DNA of 20,000 nt from an uncultured virus (IMG/VR IMGVR_UViG_3300032221_000327) (Duplodnaviria; Heunggongvirae; Uroviricota; Caudoviricetes). The position numbers were made by a program, and so were the translations under genes. Under the pieces are notes generated by a model that was given only the letters and a program-made list of their open reading frames with translations, was not told the DNA's origin and ran no database searches. Position 1 is the stretch's first letter. Each line of letters begins with the position of its first letter. Shown in pieces: positions 7,831 through 19,836 of this stretch. The stretch lies in IMG/VR virus record IMGVR_UViG_3300032221_000327; one strand, given 5' to 3'.

Positions 7831-8311
7831 AGGGATCGGCGCACACAACGCCAACCCCAACTGGAAATGTCCGACCCCATTGTGGCTCCCCTTGCAGCCA
7901 GCCATGCACTCCATTGTGCCAACTGCTCCACTGTCACAATTAAGTTTGACAGGGGTGCCTAGACTCGTCCCCGGTCTGACCTTCCAGCAACAACGCGCCT
8001 GGGCAGACCACTCACACCGGCCAGCGGCGCTCCTGAAGGGGAGAGGCGATGGAGGGAATGTAGGGGCAGTAGCCTCCGCTGAGAGGCAGCACGCGAGGGA
8101 GCCCCAAGCGGGCCTGTCAAGCTGCCTCTCCCCACTCCCCCTCCTGCATACTTCTTCTCCATAAACCTTCGCAAGAGCGCCATTGAAAAGGTGGCGAGCC
8201 CCAAGCGAGCCTTAGTCAGGCGCTCCTTCCCCCTTCTCTGCTCTCTTTCTTAAAAGGCTTGCAGGAATGAACGAAAGGGCTTAAGCTGGCCGAGCCATCA
8301 ATGCCCATGCT

Positions 8312-8873: not shown

Positions 8874-9650
8874 ATGGCAAAAGCCCCAAAGCCCCCTGCT
8901 ACAACGAGCCCCAGGGGGCTCACTAGGCCCCAGATTGAGTTTGGCAGTGAGCAAGACTTGCTGCAATTCAGCCTGAAGGTATTGGTGGATGCGGGTTGCA
9001 CCGTGGAACAGATTGATCGTTTGCGCAATAGGGCCAAGGATCCATCGTTCACCTTCAGCCCTGAAATCACTGGCCAGCGCCGCTACATGACCAGCGAGCT
9101 ACTGGCGGCAGGGCTAAGCAATGGACAAATTGCTCAAGTGTTTAGGCAAAGCAAGGATGTTGTCAACACTGATAGGCAAGCCATTCGTGCTCTCTATACC
9201 AAGAGCATCTTGCAAACCGCCGATAACTGGCGGGCAAAGCTCCTGCAGGAGCAGGATGATATTCGCAGGGTGGCAATGGAAGGATTTAGTGAAAGCAAAC
9301 GGCGCAAAGTGGTGCGTCGGAAGTTTGATGCAATGGGAGAAGATGATGATGATATGGACTCCCTGCCCAGCAGTGGTGGCGTGACTGAAGATCACTACTC
9401 AGCAGGCGACTCCAGCTTCCTTCGCATTGCATCTTCCTGTCTGGTGGAGCAAGCCAAACTGCTTGGCCTTCATAACAGTTCTTCGCAGAGCGCAGATGAT
9501 GAGAAAGGTTACAAGAAGTGGCTGAGCAAAATGGGTGAAATCGTTGATCGTGACCGTGAGAACCAGCGCAATGCCTTGGTGCGTGCTGATGCCATTGATG
9601 CTTCGGCTGAACCAATGGGCGATGCTGCTGGGGATCCTGCGGATGCTTGA
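8874..9650 (+). CDS. HTH protein, terminase small subunit-like
   Basis: HTH LLAAGLSNGQIAQVFRQSKDVVNTD and GDSSFL...C..EQAKLLGL motif as recalled from TerS-like proteins. Confidence 0.55.
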   Translation: MAKAPKPPATTSPRGLTRPQIEFGSEQDLLQFSLKVLVDAGCTVEQIDRLRNRAKDPSFTFSPEITGQRRYMTSELLAAGLSNGQIAQVFRQSKDVVNTDRQAIRALYTKSILQTADNWRAKLLQEQDDIRRVAMEGFSESKRRKVVRRKFDAMGEDDDDMDSLPSSGGVTEDHYSAGDSSFLRIASSCLVEQAKLLGLHNSSSQSADDEKGYKKWLSKMGEIVDRDRENQRNALVRADAIDASAEPMGDAAGDPADA

Positions 9651-11152: not shown

Positions 11153-11331
11153 CCGAGAATCAAAGCAAGTTGTTGGATGATGCTTTTGATCAGTGGTGGC
11201 TTAACGAAGGCAGCGGAATGGTACCGCTGTCGAGCCGTGATCACGTCCTCCCCCGCCACATCGCTCGCATCGCCTGGCACAACGGGGCCTACGTCAAGCT
11301 CCATCAGATTTCGCCCCCGGAGGCACCATGA
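11149..11331 (+). CDS. hypothetical phage protein
   Basis: 60 aa; AFDQWWLNEGSG...RIAWHNGAY; overlaps both neighbours. Confidence 0.7.
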   Translation: MTENQSKLLDDAFDQWWLNEGSGMVPLSSRDHVLPRHIARIAWHNGAYVKLHQISPPEAP

Positions 11332-12014
11332 CCATTCTCACGAAAAACACCGACCAGCTACGCCGCGTTGTGGCCGAGCACATTGCGGCTGATGCAGTAG
11401 TGCAGGGGAGCTATTGGGACCCGAACAGCGAACGAGGCTGCTTCATCGGCTGCCTTGCGCATTCCAATGACCCCTCCGTTCCAGAGCGGGTGTACGGGTT
11501 GCCCGTGATGGTGCAGCGGATCGCAGAATCAATTTTCGAAGCCCTACCTGCTGGGGATGCACGCGCATTCTTTGCGGCGCTGCCGGAGGCAGTGGCCTGC
11601 GACGGCAAGGACTTGACGAGGGTGGGCTGGCAGTTCCTGGCCGCCGAGCTGCGCAGTCTGCCGCCGCAACCGCCGGAGCTTCAAGCAGTCGTCGACCCGG
11701 TGATCACCGGCATGGATCTGATGGCGGAAGGGCAGGTTTGGTCAGAGGCCGCCGCCAGGGCCGCCGGGGCCGCCGTCTGGGCCGCCGTCTGGGCCGCCGA
11801 CTGGGCCGCCAGGGCCGCCAGGGCCGCCAGTGCCGCCGGGGCCGCCGGGGCCGCCGACTGGGCCGCCGACTGGGCCGCCAGTGCCGCCAGGGCCGCCGTC
11901 GGGGTCGCGGTGGCCGTCGCCGAAGACAGGGAAGCGGCAGGTCTGGCCGCCCGCCGCCGTCAGTGGGACTTGCTGCTTCAGCTCATCGCCTCCGCTCCCA
12001 TGGGTGGACTATGA
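11328..12014 (+). CDS. GCFIGCLAH-motif protein with Ala-rich repeat (paralogue of 15774..16442)
   Basis: N-terminal ~110 aa align by eye with the 15774 ORF; C-terminal AAx/AAxW repeats. Confidence 0.8.
   Translation: MTILTKNTDQLRRVVAEHIAADAVVQGSYWDPNSERGCFIGCLAHSNDPSVPERVYGLPVMVQRIAESIFEALPAGDARAFFAALPEAVACDGKDLTRVGWQFLAAELRSLPPQPPELQAVVDPVITGMDLMAEGQVWSEAAARAAGAAVWAAVWAADWAARAARAASAAGAAGAADWAADWAASAARAAVGVAVAVAEDREAAGLAARRRQWDLLLQLIASAPMGGL
11748..11903 (+). repeat. in-frame GCCGCC-based 9/12-nt tandem repeat
   Basis: About 16 units of GCCGCC followed by AGG, GGG, AGT, GTCTGG or GACTGG. Confidence 0.9.
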
Positions 12015-13739: not shown

Positions 13740-13979
13740 TCAGGATGGGCGCCTGCCCCTGTGAGGCGAGCAGGTGCCGTAGCCGCCGCCGCTACCGTAG
13801 CCGCCGCCGCCACCGTTGCCGTAGCCGTTGCCGTTGCCGTCGCCATAGCCGTAGCCGTTGCCGTCGCCATAGCCGTAGCCGTCGCCGTAGCCGTAGCCGT
13901 TGCCGGAGCCGTAGCCGTAGCCGTAGCCGTAGCCGTAGCCGTAGCCGTCGCCGTCGCCGTAGCCTATCGGGCGGAACAT
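13740..13979 (-). CDS. Gly-X (Y/D/N/S) repeat protein
   Basis: MFRPIGYGDGDGYGYG...; ATG overlaps the upstream TGA (TGATG); terminator follows. Confidence 0.7.
   Translation of the reverse strand: MFRPIGYGDGDGYGYGYGYGYGYGSGNGYGYGDGYGYGDGNGYGYGDGNGNGYGNGGGGGYGSGGGYGTCSPHRGRRPS
13776..13964 (-). repeat. hexamer tandem repeat GGC-NNC
   Basis: About 31 units GGC(TAC/GAC/AAC/TCC/GGC/AGC/TAT). Confidence 0.9.
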
Positions 13980-14299
13980 CACAGCCCCCAGTCGTCAGCC
14001 ACCGGCACCGAGAAAATCTCGGCACCAGCAGGCATGTCAACGTCGGCCATGGGCCTGAGGTCCGCTTTGGACGGGTTTTCAATCACTTTTGAGAACCCGC
14101 AGGATTCCCATCTAAACACCCACACGCAGCGGGACAGCCGGATGCGCCCGTCCTCGCGCACAACGTCGCCCGCAAAGATCCAGCCTCTGTCAACAACGAC
14201 CACGGCACGGTTGCCCGTGGTCTGGCGCGGCACATATTCCTCGCCATTGACGACGATACGTCCGTCAGCAAAAACAATGTTGTGGTTTGGGAGTCCCAT
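13979..14299 (-). CDS. small beta-barrel (Sm/DUF6948-like) protein
   Basis: Start ATG 14299; AVVVVDRGWIFAGD...IRL....VFRW...G motif. Confidence 0.65.
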   Translation of the reverse strand: MGLPNHNIVFADGRIVVNGEEYVPRQTTGNRAVVVVDRGWIFAGDVVREDGRIRLSRCVWVFRWESCGFSKVIENPSKADLRPMADVDMPAGAEIFSVPVADDWGL

Positions 14300-14318
14300 G
14301 GAAAGAAAGAGGGGGAAC

Positions 14319-14353
14319 CTCCCCACAATACAGGCTGCGGGTCAGCCTGTCCA
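14319..14353 (-). promoter_or_regulatory. promoter with internal palindrome
   Basis: TGGACA-17nt-TATTGT-GGGGAG; perfect inverted repeat ACAGGCTG-N5-CAGCCTGT at 14330-14350. Confidence 0.6.
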
Positions 14354-15661: not shown

Positions 15662-15773
15662 AACCAGGGGGGACGGCCTCTTCCGCGCCGAAATTGCGTG
15701 GTTTTCGGCCTGGAACAGTGACGAAAGGGGGCTTCGGCCCCCTTCCCTCTAATTCTTTTCCATCGCCTTTTCT

Positions 15774-16442
15774 ATGATGATTCACAATTTCACAAAGCTC
15801 AAGGCTGAAGTTGAAAAGCACGTTCGTGCTGACAAGGTAGTGCAGAGAATATATTGGGATTCGGAAAATCAGCGCGGCTGCTTTATTGGCTGCTTGGCCC
15901 ACAGCAGTAACCCATTCTTTATTGCTCGGGAATACGGCATCCCTGTGTCTGTTTTAGAGCTGGCGGAGTCAATCTTTGAGAGTCTTCCTGCCGATGAGGC
16001 TCCTAAGTTCTTCGCTGCATTTCCTGATGCCGTTGGTGGCGATGGAAAAGAATTACATGGTGTGCCGTTCCTGTTCCTGGCGGAACAACTGCGGCAAGTG
16101 CCGACAGACGGTGCCATGTTTCCAGTGGCCGTGCAGTCTGCGCTGGGCCGATGGGCCGATGGCTTGGAGCTTATAGCCAGAGACCAACCGTGGCGCGACT
16201 ATGAAGAGGCGAGGGCTGAACTGGCCTGGGTGCGGGGTAATGAGTCTTCTGCGTATGGGGAGCTGTGCGGCTCTCTGTGCGTAGAGGGCGATGATCCTGC
16301 CTTTGGTTGTCTGTATGGGGAAATGCAACGCTTTCTCGTACCCGGTTTGACGTATTTCTGTTCAGAAAGGCAAGCTCTAGCCATGCTGCAGCGCGACTTG
16401 CTGCTCAGGCTGGTGCGTGAGGCTCCCTACGTTGTCTCATAA
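15774..16442 (+). CDS. GCFIGCLAH-motif protein (paralogue of 11328..12014)
   Basis: Shared H..AD.VVQ..YWD....RGCFIGCLAHS, AESIFE.LPA, DGK.L, and C-terminal Q.DLLL.L...AP. Confidence 0.8.
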   Translation: MMIHNFTKLKAEVEKHVRADKVVQRIYWDSENQRGCFIGCLAHSSNPFFIAREYGIPVSVLELAESIFESLPADEAPKFFAAFPDAVGGDGKELHGVPFLFLAEQLRQVPTDGAMFPVAVQSALGRWADGLELIARDQPWRDYEEARAELAWVRGNESSAYGELCGSLCVEGDDPAFGCLYGEMQRFLVPGLTYFCSERQALAMLQRDLLLRLVREAPYVVS

Positions 16443-16630: not shown

Positions 16631-16694
16631 CGATGGTGGGAAACTGAGGGGAGCCTGCCCGTTTGGCTGTATTGTTAGCTCAACGGGGAGACCC
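16614..16694 (+). promoter_or_regulatory. HLR1-like box, -10 TATTGT and 5' hairpin (copy A)
   Basis: Reverse-strand GTTACATT-TC-TTCACACT; GTATTGTTAGCTCAACGGGGAGACCC. Confidence 0.55.
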
Positions 16695-16976: not shown

Positions 16977-17023
16977 TCGCCCCTCCCTCCCTCCCCCTCC
17001 TTTCCCTCCATCGCCACCTTCCA

Positions 17024-17308
17024 ATGACTGCCTCCAAAACCGCTCAAGTGCGCCAGTTCATCCGTTCCGCTGGAAGTACCATCGTTTCCGTCACTTTCCG
17101 CAAGGCTGACGGTACGCTCCGTTCGCTGCAGTTCAACCCCCGTGATCGGCAGGAAGTTAAGGGCACTGGCACGGCCACCAGGCCGCCTGAGATTGTCTGC
17201 TGCCGTGACTTCCGCATTGCTCGCACGCAAGGGCAAGGCGCCTGGCGTTCGTTCAACGCCGAGCGAGTGGTAACGCTCAGGGCCAATGGCAAAGAACTGG
17301 CTTTGTGA
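17024..17308 (+). CDS. WYL_2/DUF2693-like SH3 beta-barrel protein
   Basis: VSVTFRKADGTLR ... AWRSF motif. Confidence 0.65.
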   Translation: MTASKTAQVRQFIRSAGSTIVSVTFRKADGTLRSLQFNPRDRQEVKGTGTATRPPEIVCCRDFRIARTQGQGAWRSFNAERVVTLRANGKELAL

Positions 17309-17374
17309 ACTTTTGTAACAGCAGGGGCCGCAAGGCCCCTTTTGTCGTATTGTTGGTTCAACGGGGGCGACCCC
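17302..17374 (+). promoter_or_regulatory. HLR1-like box, -10 TATTGT and 5' hairpin (copy B)
   Basis: Reverse-strand GTTACAAA-AG-TTCACAAA; GTATTGTTGGTTCAACGGGGGCGACCCC. Confidence 0.55.
17323..17343 (+). terminator. intrinsic terminator
   Basis: GGGGCC-GCAA-GGCCCC-TTTT. Confidence 0.7.
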
Positions 17375-17392
17375 ACCACCACACCACCAGCC

Positions 17393-17674
17393 ATGACCAG
17401 CGCCATCGCTCCCAGCTCGATCTATGCCCAGATCCGCGAACGTGCCGCCAAAAGGCAAGTCGCCCACGATCGCAAGATTTTCAGAGAGGCTTGCGAACAG
17501 ATCGCCGCGCACATGGACGGCCTTGGATTTGCAGAGCTTTACAAGAGCGAATTGACTACAGAGATCAATCAATCCTGGTGCCGTATTTGGGATCACCTCA
17601 GCCCAAAGCGGGAAATCGCAGTGATTGAGTTCAAGGTGAAAGGGGTTGTCTACTGGCTCAATCGCGACTTCTGA
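17393..17674 (+). CDS. hypothetical protein
   Basis: Start revised to ATG 17393 (MTSAIAP). Confidence 0.7.
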   Translation: MTSAIAPSSIYAQIRERAAKRQVAHDRKIFREACEQIAAHMDGLGFAELYKSELTTEINQSWCRIWDHLSPKREIAVIEFKVKGVVYWLNRDF

Positions 17675-17680
17675 CCCCCC

Positions 17681-17714
17681 CCACGGCCCGCCGGGCGCCG
17701 CAAGCCCGGCAACC
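17681..17714 (+). repeat. 34-nt intergenic repeat, predicted pseudoknot (copy 1)
   Basis: 31/34 identical to 18643-18676. Confidence 0.85.
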
Positions 17715-17734
17715 CATCCCATTGCATTAACGCC

Positions 17735-18115
17735 ATGGTCAGGCCTGCTCCTGTCATTCAACGGGCACAAGATGGACCACATCAAGGCTGTCCCGTCCCT
17801 AGCCCGTGTCCGTTCTGCGGATTGTCTGATCACCTTCGGTTTGAGTTTTCTGGATCACAGGGCTACGTCGTGTGCGACGCCTGCGGCGCGATGGGGCCAA
17901 GCGACGAGCAAGCCGCCGACCCTCATTGCGATGTAGACGCTGCCTATATGGCCTGGAACAGACGTGCATGCGCAGCCAAAGAAGAGACCACGCAAATAAT
18001 TAGGTGGTTGAAATGGCAAGCAGAACAAGCATTCAACGCTGACATGCGAGAAGAAGCAGCCAAGATTGACCGCGCTGCCGAACTGCTTGCCCTCGCCGGT
18101 GGATTCAATGCCTGA
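17735..18115 (+). CDS. Lar-family restriction alleviation-like Zn-ribbon protein
   Basis: PCPFCG ... VVCDACGAMGP ... AWNRRA. Confidence 0.75.
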   Translation: MVRPAPVIQRAQDGPHQGCPVPSPCPFCGLSDHLRFEFSGSQGYVVCDACGAMGPSDEQAADPHCDVDAAYMAWNRRACAAKEETTQIIRWLKWQAEQAFNADMREEAAKIDRAAELLALAGGFNA

Positions 18116-18326
18116 CCCAACCAACGCCGAGCCACTTACCCTGGTAAGTCGAGTAACCCTTGCCATGTTTAGAACAGGCCCGCTATTTCAAGTCCCAACT
18201 GAAACTGAAGCTCAAGCCCGCGTCGCAATTCGTGAAGTAGCAGCTTGGCTGCGAGAAACCGACTCCAAATGGAATATGGGTGGTGATGCGGCAGCAATCG
18301 CAGACTTGCTCAATGACATTTCCTGA
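18108..18326 (+). CDS. hypothetical phage protein
   Basis: Start ATG 18108; LVSRV...AQARVAIREVAAWLR motif. Confidence 0.7.
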   Translation: MPDPTNAEPLTLVSRVTLAMFRTGPLFQVPTETEAQARVAIREVAAWLRETDSKWNMGGDAAAIADLLNDIS

Positions 18327-18454
18327 TGCCTAACCCCACCAACGCCGAACGCCAGCGCCGCTGGCGCGAACGCCGCAGGGCCGGCACCACATGGCAGCCG
18401 CTCATCTGCCAGTCATGCAACCACCGCCACACCGCCAGCCATGATCAGCCTTGA
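18326..18454 (+). pseudogene. probably truncated Zn-finger protein fragment (42 aa)
   Basis: MPNPTNAERQRRWRERRRAGTTWQPLICQSCNHRHTASHDQP*; only one CxxC, running into the repeated leader of the next gene. Confidence 0.4.
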
Positions 18455-18635
18455 GAAGATCGGGTACAGCTCCACCATCTACCGCGACAATGAAGCCGGC
18501 AAGGTTCGCGCTGAGGCAACGTTGGCTGTCGCAATCAAAACGGCATGTCCCGGTGAAACCTTTGACCTGTTCCACAATGGGCGCGGCTGGGTTGTTCGCA
18601 TGTTTGAGGATGGCGATTTCGTTCAGACCATCTGA
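18441..18635 (+). CDS. hypothetical protein
   Basis: 64 aa between the repeated leader and the repeated pseudoknot. Confidence 0.7.
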   Translation: MISLEKIGYSSTIYRDNEAGKVRAEATLAVAIKTACPGETFDLFHNGRGWVVRMFEDGDFVQTI

Positions 18636-18642
18636 CTTTGCT

Positions 18643-18676
18643 CCATGGCCCGCCGGGCGCCACAAGTCCGGCAACC
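18643..18676 (+). repeat. 34-nt intergenic repeat, predicted pseudoknot (copy 2)
   Basis: 31/34 identical to 17681-17714. Confidence 0.85.
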
Positions 18677-18703
18677 TTCCTCTTTCCTATCACTTCTCCT
18701 TCC

Positions 18704-18886
18704 ATGGCTACATTCTCCGCCCTGCTCCTGGCCCTGCTTCTACTGCCGCTTCTGGTGCTGTTGTGGGCCTCTGAAAGCCGCGAGCAGCGTGCTCGCCGCT
18801 GGCGCCAGCAAGGCATGAGCCAGCAGCGCATTGCTGATCGGCTGGGCTGCTCCCGCACCACCGTGCGGCGACTGTTGACTGTCTGA
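18704..18886 (+). CDS. membrane-anchored helix-turn-helix protein
   Basis: N-terminal Leu-rich TM helix, then GMSQQRIADRLGCSRTTVRRLL HTH. Confidence 0.8.
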   Translation: MATFSALLLALLLLPLLVLLWASESREQRARRWRQQGMSQQRIADRLGCSRTTVRRLLTV

Positions 18887-19801: not shown

Positions 19802-19836
19802 TTGACAGGCCATGGCAGGGGCTGTATTGTGGGGAG
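19802..19836 (+). promoter_or_regulatory. sigma70-type promoter
   Basis: TTGACA-17nt-TATTGT-GGGGAG followed by hairpin AACAAGG-GCGAT-CCTTGTT. Confidence 0.7.

Follow-up and report, generated by a model that had tools for sequence, protein, structure and literature searches.

A compact H-type pseudoknot family at cistron boundaries of phage operons, with a possible role against RNA decay

Results

Two copies of a short repeat in the early region of an S-CBS4-like cyanophage belong to a well-supported, cross-phylum RNA family that is missing from Rfam 15. At least 311 distinct copies of this H-type pseudoknot of 24–40 nt were gathered by pattern scans, and the host phyla include Bacillota, Cyanobacteria, Acidobacteriota and Actinomycetota. 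The comparative evidence shows that a compact fold (S1 of 3–4 bp, a 2-nt L1, a 7-bp S2, no L2 and an L3 ending in A) has been selected on the mRNA strand. The same evidence shows that the knot sits just past the reach of a ribosome on the preceding stop codon, and that the next start codon follows at 10–35 nt, or a stable RNA within a few bases. The reading that is tentatively favoured here is that the knot would act as a portable, protein-free boundary element against RNA decay at the cistron boundaries of fast-expressed phage operons.

The window, meaning the whole 20,000-nt stretch of DNA that was analysed, holds the two 34-nt copies where the first-pass annotation had placed them, differing at three positions (a 91% repeat family). 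A 29-nt degenerate pattern allowing up to three mismatches matched these two copies only, and gave no match in 200 shuffles. The H-type geometry claimed for both (4-bp S1, 2-nt L1, 7-bp S2, no L2, 3-nt L3) was recovered, with one G-U pair in S2 of copy 2 (18657/18667). A generic H-type scan of the window returned five sites on the plus strand and two on the minus strand, and three shuffles gave 3, 0 and 0. The nested hairpin alone had stability z-scores of −1.54 (copy 1) and −1.38 (copy 2), by a folding method that excludes pseudoknots. Since H-type geometry is not rare and the hairpin is not unusually stable, the argument depends on the repeat and its homologues.

The surroundings of both copies are listed in Table 1. 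The promoter-like repeat upstream of copy 1 is probably the start of the transcript bearing both knots, a role suggested by its sequence. The window also encodes a Sak-like annealing protein.

Table 1. Features of the window around the two pseudoknot copies.
Feature	Position	Strand	Remarks
Promoter-like repeat	17335..17366 (second copy 16657-16688)	+	Second hexamer common to other promoter-like sites
Terminator-like hairpin ending previous unit	17323..17340	+	
93-aa ORF	17393..17674	+	No known family; UGA ahead of knot 1
9-nt C/A-rich spacer, stop codon to knot 1	17675..17683	+	Family spacer is A/C-rich
Pseudoknot copy 1	17684..17710	+	S1 17684-87/17697-700; L1 17688-89; S2 17690-96/17704-10; L3 17701-03
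24-nt C/A-rich leader after knot 1	17711..17734	+	No Shine-Dalgarno
Lar-like restriction-alleviation gene	17735..18115	+	First after knot 1; PHROG 599 E 1.6e-10; PF14354 E 3.1e-11
72-aa ORF	18108..18326	+	Overlaps Lar gene; no family
42-aa ORF	18326..18454	+	Start overlaps preceding stop; similar ORF after knot region in locus L001
64-aa ORF	18441..18635	+	No known family; UGA ahead of knot 2
10-nt spacer, stop codon to knot 2	18636..18645	+	
Pseudoknot copy 2	18646..18672	+	S1 18646-49/18659-62; L1 18650-51; S2 18652-58/18666-72; L3 18663-65
31-nt pyrimidine-rich leader after knot 2	18673..18703	+	No Shine-Dalgarno
60-aa helix-turn-helix gene	18704..18886	+	First after knot 2; PF13384 E 2.1e-7

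In the homologues, the lengths of L1 (2 nt) and S2 (7 bp) were imposed by the scan patterns, and the inner S1 pairs were left free. Among the matches listed these inner pairs were formed in 94 of 116, as GGC/GCC (70), CGC/GCG (17), AGC/GCU (4) or GCC/GGC (3), and the CGC/GCG type came from 16 separate flank clusters. The free positions of S2 were paired in 101/116 and 104/121 of the matches listed in two scans, with covariation at all seven S2 pairs. Two-sided changes were seen at 6 of 11 pairs in alignment A1 and at 10 of 11 in alignment A3, whose rows were hand-picked for variants so that its counts lean towards structure. Moreover, copies within one phage (L450) differ by compensatory changes. 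The earlier proposal of a functional cis-acting RNA thus gains support from a selected fold upheld by crossing-stem covariation: the inner S1 pairs change on both sides and pairing is kept, and no Rfam family reaches threshold for the knot. The C-G to U-A exchange first noticed in S1 is real; it concerns, however, the outermost S1 pair, which is the least conserved pair of the family. This fourth pair is kept in 28 of 32 matches listed with a loop of 7–8 nt and in 12 of 54 with a loop of 5–6 nt, which indicates that it is retained where L3 is long enough to span it. In the most frequent loop form no more than 2 + 2 bases are unpaired. L3 reads CAA in 111, UAA in 37, AAA in 16 and GAA in 14 of 192 matches listed, so that the C of CAA varies freely, and a long variant carries an extra hairpin inside L3.

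Four of the scans give lower bounds for the extent of the family, and the matches listed are mostly true. At least 232 of the 311 copies have one common S2 sequence, which the scan patterns favoured. Records carry up to five knots among the matches listed, and cultured carriers include two Microbacterium phages, Zooman and Big4, with copies at OK040793.1:85190 and ON637770.1:87842 and Microbacterium foliorum as host. A scan for the S2 type of the window itself gave mostly background, with S1 in 19 of 102 matches, and these loci were kept out of the union; a local scan with other junction pairs matched nothing beyond the loci of the hairpin control set. The region 30000-69420 of S-CBS4 and 12 related loci, reached through the protein at 17024, held no knot in 234,723 bases, which makes the element patchy even among kin. 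When four viral contigs were searched by tblastn for their hosts, all matches were distant and uninformative. A match in a Klebsiella phage (H26) lies in the orientation opposite to the gene strand. One locus (L354), considered as an RNA anti-CRISPR cassette, was rejected because the knot there is a spacer of a CRISPR array; it was left out of the counts based on the at least 311 copies (conservation, spacing and 3′ flank) and is still included in those of stop and start codons, frames and L3, in the S2 pairing of 104/121 and in the set from which the promoter-first copies were read. Searches with exact motif strings gave no literature match within a scope that excludes the supplements of Weinberg 2017 and the alignments of Fremin 2023, and the tables of Fremin 2023 held no match to the motif.

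The position of the knot relative to genes is strongly constrained. Among the matches listed, it starts 6–11 nt past a stop codon in 104 of 219 lineages, against 13 of 220 on the opposite strand, with a peak at 7–9 nt and a sharp onset at 6–7 nt; starts at 0–5 nt occur in 31 lineages where 18 are expected. A stop codon lies within 30 nt upstream of 122/166 copies listed (opposite strand 52/161, S2-only hairpins 18/72) and an ATG within 40 nt downstream of 116/166 (25/161 and 15/72, respectively). The first-pass annotation had noted a UGA-C stop before S1, and this holds for both window copies, at 9 and 10 nt (stops ending at 17674 and 18635). In the family, however, the 122 stops among the matches listed are UAA (59), UGA (43) or UAG (20), and with only 14 of them UGA-C this context is incidental. 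Stop-to-start frames among the matches listed (26/26/33) are random, a result at odds with readthrough into the following gene. Other settings also occur. In Zooman and Big4 the knot begins 1 nt past the stop; the knot is the first element after a promoter in L005/L028, L020 and L346; at some loci it lies 5–7 nt ahead of a tRNA, and at others ahead of a twister ribozyme (twisters are present in L020, L021, L028 and L618). In L363, L379 and L443, read by eye, what follows the knot is a tRNA, a ribozyme or a new promoter.

The neighbouring genes have little in common. A Pfam search of 132 ORFs downstream of knots matched 13 to any family; none recurred except helix-turn-helix domains, and no shared protein gene was found beside the copies. 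RNase J scored above cut-off in four of five carrier genomes, the fifth being a small assembled genome of unstated completeness. Rho could not be shown in two of the five, which indicates that a Rho-blocking role is not general, and a general Rho block was accordingly abandoned.

Several other known roles were rejected. A readthrough or frameshift pseudoknot would have the 6–9 nt spacer seen here, but the frequency of UGA-C and the random frames do not fit it. An intrinsic terminator is contradicted by the 3′ flank, which holds at least five U in the next 10 nt in only 7 of 309 copies listed. A type III antitoxin RNA was dismissed because the copies are dispersed and single, and no type III toxin family was found among the 132 downstream ORFs.

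Discussion

If the knot is a barrier to decay, it would withstand unwinding by enzymes dependent on a single-stranded end. RNase J degrading a polycistronic early mRNA from the 5′ side would halt at the knot, and the ribosome-binding region of the next gene would stay intact; where a cut is made just downstream, by RNase P at a tRNA, by a twister ribozyme or by RNase E or Y, the knot would form a cap at the 3′ terminus of the fragment upstream. For the window, this would mean separate stabilised segments for the anti-restriction (Lar) and helix-turn-helix cistrons. RNase J1 can indeed be stopped in vitro by folded RNA (PMC5760640). This reading is favoured because one role covers all contexts, whether between cistrons, first after a promoter, or ahead of a tRNA or twister, because RNase J is present in most of the carrier genomes, because none of the 11 credible genome loci, a small number, was assigned to Gammaproteobacteria, Betaproteobacteria or Bacteroidota, and because putative M23-like sister folds are located in 5′ leaders. 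Against it, RNase J may be able to run through a knot of 24 nt whose S1 has 3 bp, and the one carrier genome in which RNase J was not seen weighs against the 5′ half of the proposal. Copies ahead of a tRNA, ribozyme or promoter misfit 5′ protection and promoter-first copies misfit 3′ protection, so that both directions are needed. A bolder claim, which is possible but doubtful, is that bacterial viruses would have here their first natural RNA that blocks an exonuclease: a knot of 24–27 nt would by itself halt RNase J and set where mRNA segments end, would have passed between unrelated phages and plasmids in at least four phyla, and would form one end-setting class with M23 RNA.

The onset at 6–7 nt past the stop codon also counts against a barrier, as it fits a ribosome-facing role at least as well. 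The knot would then stand at the mRNA entry channel of the terminating ribosome and block sliding or re-initiation after termination, or time a hand-over, so that the next gene starts afresh and structured RNAs downstream are not melted. The distance peak among the matches listed agrees with this, as do the indifference to stop identity and frame, the ribosome termination structure described from +9 of the first base of the stop codon by Chemla et al. (PMC7518266) and the 6–9 nt spacers reported for recoding pseudoknots (PMC3835772). Nevertheless such a role is unlikely: promoter-first copies lack a gene ahead of them, those of Zooman and Big4 would lie under the ribosome, and a plain hairpin would suffice, which leaves the conserved S1 unexplained. 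Sequence conservation across phyla, strong among the matches listed, is above the need of a plain barrier and would suit a site bound by a conserved host factor (30S, bS1, or RNA polymerase in the manner of a put-like antiterminator) or by a phage regulator, as the T2/T4 gene 32 knot nucleates gp32 binding. The presence of several copies per operon (up to five per record among the matches listed) and the putative sister M23-like folds in 5′ leaders are consistent with a binding site, and a short L1 is shared with the CPK-1 family, whose founding member is the gene 32 pseudoknot (PMC3835772), as is the 7-bp S2. However, no shared neighbour gene was seen, those ahead of tRNAs speak against an initiation enhancer, Rho is absent from two of the five carriers, and S-CBS4 and its 12 related loci lack the knot; a bound factor is thus judged less likely again than a ribosome-facing role.

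A mimic of the tRNA acceptor arm, in which the G-starting 7-bp S2 and an unpaired A recruit RNase P or RNase Z to cut the operon into capped cistrons, is improbable. To our knowledge both enzymes are present in all the host phyla, which counts in its favour. Among the matches listed S2 begins with G in almost all copies, and A follows it directly in 233 of 308, above the 118–141 at the next positions. In vitro, loop 1 of H-type pseudoknots is reported to be a cleavage site for RNase P, whose suggested substrates include the gene 32 pseudoknot (PMC12710915). That cleavage, however, needed a 3′ RCCA, which directly follows S2 in only 13 of the 308 copies listed, a count on which both a TYMV-type tRNA-like pseudoknot and an RCCA-type RNase P substrate were rejected; NCC is not commoner there than at neighbouring offsets (34 against 26–38 among the matches listed), the 7-bp length was imposed by the scans, and a T-loop is absent. 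Still less probable is a minimal self-cleaving ribozyme that cuts early operons as twisters do in similar places. Like ribozymes, the knot is small, conserved and scattered over unrelated mobile elements, some with twisters, and the extra L3 hairpin of the long variant resembles the outer frame of HDV-like ribozymes, which carries such a hairpin. The hallmarks of HDV-like ribozymes are a P3/L3/P1.1 core and an invariant catalytic C. New ribozyme classes have moreover been found via shared gene context (PMC6765202). However, the few unpaired bases of the commonest loop form leave no room for such a core and the C of CAA varies freely, on which grounds an HDV-like ribozyme in particular was rejected, and a knot placed right in front of a twister would be superfluous. 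At the far end of the scale lies a repeat acting as DNA, a recombination or cassette junction for phage recombinases shuffling early genes in which the RNA fold is incidental. Near-identical repeats of 24–27 bp do flank unrelated small genes, and the annealing protein of the window could be so employed, but the strict strand bias and stop-codon spacing, the G-U pairs and the compensatory differences between the L450 copies argue against it, and covariation of the crossing stems largely refutes it.

Little is known of how the earliest phage messages for anti-defence and takeover survive in hosts with 5′-3′ decay, where the relevant parts of reviews attribute 5′ protection mainly to bound ribosomes. 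The knot is a portable element of 24 nt with hundreds of natural variants and cultured carriers, and so is directly testable with break-and-restore mutants. If a block to RNase J proves true, it would also serve in Bacillota, cyanobacteria and actinomycetes as a minimal device to stabilise mRNA or insulate operons; under any other mechanism it is still a cross-phylum RNA family new to Rfam 15.

Comparison with known RNA systems

The closest known system is the M23 RNA (RF03006; Weinberg et al. 2017, PMC5737381), whose consensus has the same order of parts as the knot (CGGC, two bases, a stem starting with GCCG, GCCG, an A-rich linker and the closing strand), followed by a Shine-Dalgarno sequence. 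As judged from this consensus, the orphan M23 RNA is probably a sister fold of the knot. The M23 model scored at best 25.8 bits on the knots (L015; cut-off 41.2) and did not match copy 1 or anything else in the window, and the knot model gave at most 11.6 bits on M23-like loci, among 14 of 17 loci listed. Of the 17 M23-like matches in Oscillospirales, 12 admit an H-type fold, about eight with a GGC/GCC stem, by a permissive descriptor used without a control. No M23 member over threshold was found in 151 genomes, and no M23 peptidase family among the 132 ORFs downstream of knots. The M23 RNA lies in chromosomal 5′ leaders of peptidase genes, whereas the knot is found in mobile elements from four phyla or more, mostly past stop codons. 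No function is known for M23 RNA, and the knot may lend it one.

In compactness, and in an L1 of 1–2 nt crossing S2, the knot resembles the CPK-1 pseudoknots of T2/T4 gene 32 and SRV-1 (PMC3835772, PMC5449628). CPK-1 is, however, a structural class and not a sequence family, and the single gene 32 copy is bound by its own product, whereas many knots precede unrelated genes and no cognate protein was found. Structures some 6–9 nt past a stop or recoding site are shared with the RTS of Chemla et al. (2020, PMC7518266), described there as a statistical folding signal without a conserved fold, which the knot has, and with recoding pseudoknots, which need a fixed frame or stop context where the knot keeps neither. 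The ToxI, CptI and TenpI type III antitoxins are likewise short, phage-related H-type folds with an A-rich loop, but are described as tandem repeats upstream of a toxin gene (PMC12283969), unlike the dispersed single knots.

The exonuclease-resistant xrRNAs (flavivirus class 1 and plant-virus class 3) are also viral, pseudoknotted and often intergenic, and one blocks RNase J1 in vitro (PMC5760640). Those described in PMC12397905, whose main text does not contain the word phage, belong to eukaryotic RNA viruses, are larger (at least 54 nt, the minimum of ST9a) and enclose the 5′ end in a ring, whereas the knot is a simple H-type fold with putative resistance. At 24–27 nt, it is under half the size of the ST9a minimum. 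A class 1 or class 3 xrRNA fold was rejected because the knot core has only this length and two stems, and no Rfam match was obtained. The nearest functional parallel would be the PPR10 and HCF152 sites of chloroplasts, where the bound PPR protein is reported to form an intercistronic barrier to exonucleases from both directions, RNase J being the 5′ enzyme (PMC3799425). The knot would play for phage operons the role that PPR10 plays in chloroplasts, with a barrier made of RNA alone.

Two copies of a minimal pseudoknot in a run of small phage genes

The first-pass annotation had described two repeat copies that each fold as an H-type pseudoknot, and both are present as described (repeat family D18 of the window). 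Each of these knots consists of two crossing stems, S1 and S2, a loop L1 across S2 and a loop L3 ending in A, with no L2. A degenerate 29-nt pattern matched these two sites alone in the window, with no matches in 200 shuffles. H-type geometry alone is not rare (five sites on the + and two on the - strand of the window; 3, 0 and 0 in three shuffles), and nested hairpin stability gave z-scores of only -1.5 (knot 1) and -1.4 (knot 2). A covariance model, as the annotation had proposed, was built from the family; it scored the window copies, both in its seed, at 45.1 and 37.3 bits. The window has no third copy by this model, as the site ranked after these two reaches 13.3 bits.

The window DNA is phage. 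Across 99% of its length, the Sak-like protein encoded here shows 47% identity to the homologue in Synechococcus phage S-CBS4, and the gene order exonuclease, Sak, primase-helicase, PHROG-645 gene is common to both. No knot was found in S-CBS4 30000-69420 or in 12 loci of other relatives. A single series of small genes on one strand, beginning at the promoter-like repeat 17335-17366 (D20), contains both knots; a Lar-like restriction-alleviation gene follows knot 1 and a small HTH gene follows knot 2. The promoter-like repeats are probably this phage's early promoters; in two copies the first hexamer is near consensus.

Several other features of the window were recorded. ORFs 11328-12014, which ends in an Ala/Trp repeat, and 15774-16442, which had no PHROG match, are paralogues with an N-terminal block in common. 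On the - strand, 13740-14326 holds a 115-aa ORF whose downstream neighbour, which overlaps it, is made up of Gly-Tyr/Gly-Asp repeats (repeat family D1). The match of 8874-9650 to PHROG 645 carries the label RNase E, which looks doubtful because the same profile also matches the small HTH protein at 18704. Elsewhere in the window, the consensus layout of a weak sul1 alignment resembles the knot.

Coordinates of knots and associated features (window positions, or positions in loci fetched from other viruses, plasmids and genomes, given as L numbers)
Feature	Position	Strand	Basis or remark
Knot 1, S1	17684-87 with 17697-700	+	H-type scan of window
Knot 1, S2	17690-96 with 17704-10	+	H-type scan of window
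Knot 2, S1	18646-49 with 18659-62	+	H-type scan of window
Knot 2, S2	18652-58 with 18666-72	+	H-type scan of window
Promoter-like repeats	16657-16688, 17335-17366, 19802-19830; 14353-14325 (-)		common second hexamer TATTGT
Long pyrimidine-rich leaders before start codons, without Shine-Dalgarno	8137-8166, 15738-15767, 16986-17015, 18673-18703		repeat family D5
Long variant, hairpin inserted in L3	L001 336-375; L003, L006, L025, L032		scans of viral loci
tRNA-Ser-like sequences directly after knot, unannotated	L464 6029-6110 (Zooman), L465 6030-6112 (Big4)		by eye
Knot-plus-tRNA-like cassette, long anticodon-arm insertion	L466 3033-3130; L161, L526, L529, L584		recurring
Twister ribozymes in knot operons	L020 846-909, L028 2680-2745, L021 2223-2274 and 2520-2571, L618 334-388		Rfam

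Pairing is preserved in columns left free

An exact scan returned one relative. A longer variant is present there too, in which S2 carries compensating changes and L3 contains a hairpin. Looser scans returned 32 viral, 30 genome and at least 123 metagenome loci. Later scans left parts of the fold unconstrained, which made pairing there something to be tested and not a condition of the match. With S2 fixed and S1 and L1 free, three or four S1 pairs formed in 32 of the 113 distinct matches listed, and the remaining 81 became a hairpin-only control set. When the inner four S2 pairs were freed, all four were paired in 31/89, with several pair types; freeing two S2 columns in metagenomes left both paired in 104 of the 121 matches listed. 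The first three S2 pairs, when free, were fully paired in 101 of 116 matches listed, 15 of these 101 having a changed 5' strand. With S2 and the junction pair fixed and S1 positions 2-4 free, both inner positions were paired in 94 of 116 matches listed (GGC/GCC 70, CGC/GCG 17, AGC/GCU 4, GCC/GGC 3). The scan for the window's own S2 type gave mostly background (S1 present in 19 of 102 matches listed); the matches listed include the S1 form CCC/GGG six times, and also three cyanophage-like copies.

The base change remarked on at first reading concerns the outer S1 pair. Among the matches listed, this pair formed in 28 of 32 with a 7-8 nt loop, the kind to which the window copies belong, but where the loop has 5-6 nt it formed in 12 of 54. 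Two alignments each gave more pairs than any of 500 shuffles or any slid control; because their rows were chosen for the fold, the scans with free columns carry more weight.

The union, built by descriptor, holds at least 311 distinct copies, including a few chance matches inside genes (e.g. at L004, L269, L277 and L291), and the family is larger than this collection. The 309 listed copies outside the window form 231 clusters by flanking sequence, of which 16, among the copies listed, have the CGC/GCG form of S1. In complete records (46 of 48 gave a match) the number of copies ranges from 1 to 5, and these usually share a strand and fall within a few kb. Left out of the union was L354, a CRISPR array with a complete knot copy in one spacer; some host has targeted a knot-carrying element. 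The long variant stands after two hairpins, likely at the 5' end of a cyanophage-like operon.

Among the 30 genome loci, 16 had pairs at each of the four partly free S2 positions. Context led us to accept 11 as real, of which five are from four genomes of Bacillota, five from three genomes of Acidobacteriaceae and one from Cyanobium. Further named carriers are the Microbacterium phages Zooman and Big4 and one Streptomyces plasmid. The model search matched 3 of 151 Oscillospirales genomes, so the knot is rare in chromosomes. Host assignment, tried for four viral contigs, gave none. RNase J was above cut-off in four of five carrier genomes tested and Rho in three of five, with no Rho found in Cyanobium or Subdoligranulum.

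Knots lie where expression units meet

A stop codon lies at most 30 nt upstream in 122 of the 166 listed copies with enough flank (opposite strand 52/161), and an ATG at most 40 nt downstream in 116 of 166 (opposite strand 25/161); the hairpin-only controls gave 18/72 and 15/72. With each cluster represented by a single listed copy, the first G of S1 lies 6-11 nt past the stop in 104/219 (opposite strand 13/220) and 0-5 nt past it in 31/219 (opposite strand 18). The UGA-C stop context remarked on in the window is not general, occurring at 14 of the 122 stops among listed copies, and the frame from stop to next start is random among listed copies. An ATG-led ORF begins at most 45 nt downstream in 202 of 298 listed copies. 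Only 13 of 132 downstream ORFs had a Pfam match, four of them to anti-defence families (Lar, AcrF31, DarA_C and ArdC-N). A single A follows the knot in 233 of 308 listed copies and a U-tract in 7 of 309. Together, the free-column pairing and strand-specific position bear out the cis RNA element proposed at first reading: the knot is a selected RNA fold, formed by the mRNA strand where one expression unit gives way to the next.

Promoter, tRNA and ribozyme contexts

A promoter-like site stands just upstream of the knot in 8 of 180 listed copies, against 5 of 731 control positions, and no gene intervenes in L005/L028, L020 and L346. New promoters after the knot were read by eye in L363, L379 and L443. 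In L161, L526, L529 and L632, ARAGORN placed a tRNA 5-7 nt past the knot; at a relaxed score it also called one after the knot in L385 and L466. In Zooman and Big4 the knot begins 1 nt past the stop, and after it comes a tRNA-Ser-like sequence read by eye, which had no call by ARAGORN or Rfam; these sequences resemble the annotated tRNA-Ser of Big4, and more such sequences lie behind them. The knot-plus-tRNA-like cassette is carried by the Streptomyces plasmid and related viral contigs. In one cassette (L020, L618, L377) the knot is followed at ~10 nt by a twister P5 ribozyme; the twister calls are over cut-off for P5 and under it for P1.

Other elements were seen near knots. A hammerhead-like motif lies 58 nt upstream of the knot in L441. 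A structured stretch of ~110 nt between two knots (L452 2158-2270) is kept in a second contig, L453, and had no Rfam match; directly after a knot, L452 2300-2330 is a degenerate unit that resembles the repeat of the L354 CRISPR array and may be a repeat unit standing alone. sRNA-Xcc1-like matches lie under threshold (35.7 vs 53 bits) at L003 2246-2341 and L457 3257-3352.

Possible functions of the knot

From these contexts we infer, tentatively, that the knot may act as a two-sided exonuclease barrier, the reading favoured here because it is the sole role that fits all four contexts. Exonucleases arriving from either side would halt at the knot. Passages of the literature describe PPR proteins as such two-sided barriers between chloroplast cistrons (PMC3799425), the stopping of RNase J1 by folded RNA (PMC5760640) and the occurrence of RNase J in cyanobacteria (PMC10989914). 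Major- and minor-groove triples are likewise described, in part of PMC5449628, as stiffening such pseudoknots; by our assignment, the conserved first C of L1 (major groove) and the terminal A of L3 (minor groove) could form them.

A role as a ribosome insulator was also weighed, because the spacing after the stop fits the edge of a terminating ribosome as given in parts of PMC7518266 and PMC3835772, but it fails for the promoter-first copies and for those of Zooman and Big4, and we regard it as unlikely. A protein site is rather improbable. More doubtful still would be mimicry of an acceptor arm, with RNase P or RNase Z as the enzyme (cf. sections of PMC12710915); RCCA is absent, following the knot in just 13 of 308 listed copies. 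That the knot is a ribozyme seems very improbable, and a DNA repeat is the least probable reading. The exonuclease barrier is a putative function for a well supported fold.

Comparison with known RNAs

In line with the novelty suspected initially, neither window copy matched Rfam 15, and family copies in 18, 15 and 20 loci gave no Rfam 15 match at threshold. Nor was the knot found in the literature searched, including by exact motif strings, although an unnamed listing as a candidate motif is possible. Known classes of exoribonuclease-resistant RNA would be alike in action only by hypothesis, and the knot fails their size and fold criteria as set out in part of PMC12397905.

The sole sub-threshold match on family copies was to M23 RNA (RF03006; 25.8 vs 41.2 bits), whose model consensus appears to have the same architecture; a passage in Weinberg et al. 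(PMC5737381) treats M23 as an orphan RNA without c-di-AMP binding. In Oscillospirales, 17 M23-like matches were found in 16 of 151 genomes, all below cut-off. Most admit the same knot and are sited in 5' leaders, but the knot-family model does not recognise them. Several of these leaders on Oscillospirales chromosomes (L856-L872) stand just past promoter-like sites, and the set suggests that RF03006 folds as a pseudoknot and has a wider membership. Overall, the knots are a genuine family of minimal pseudoknots, uncatalogued and spread across phyla, that lie at phage and plasmid gene boundaries, and M23 RNA is an apparent sister fold that forms a separate family.
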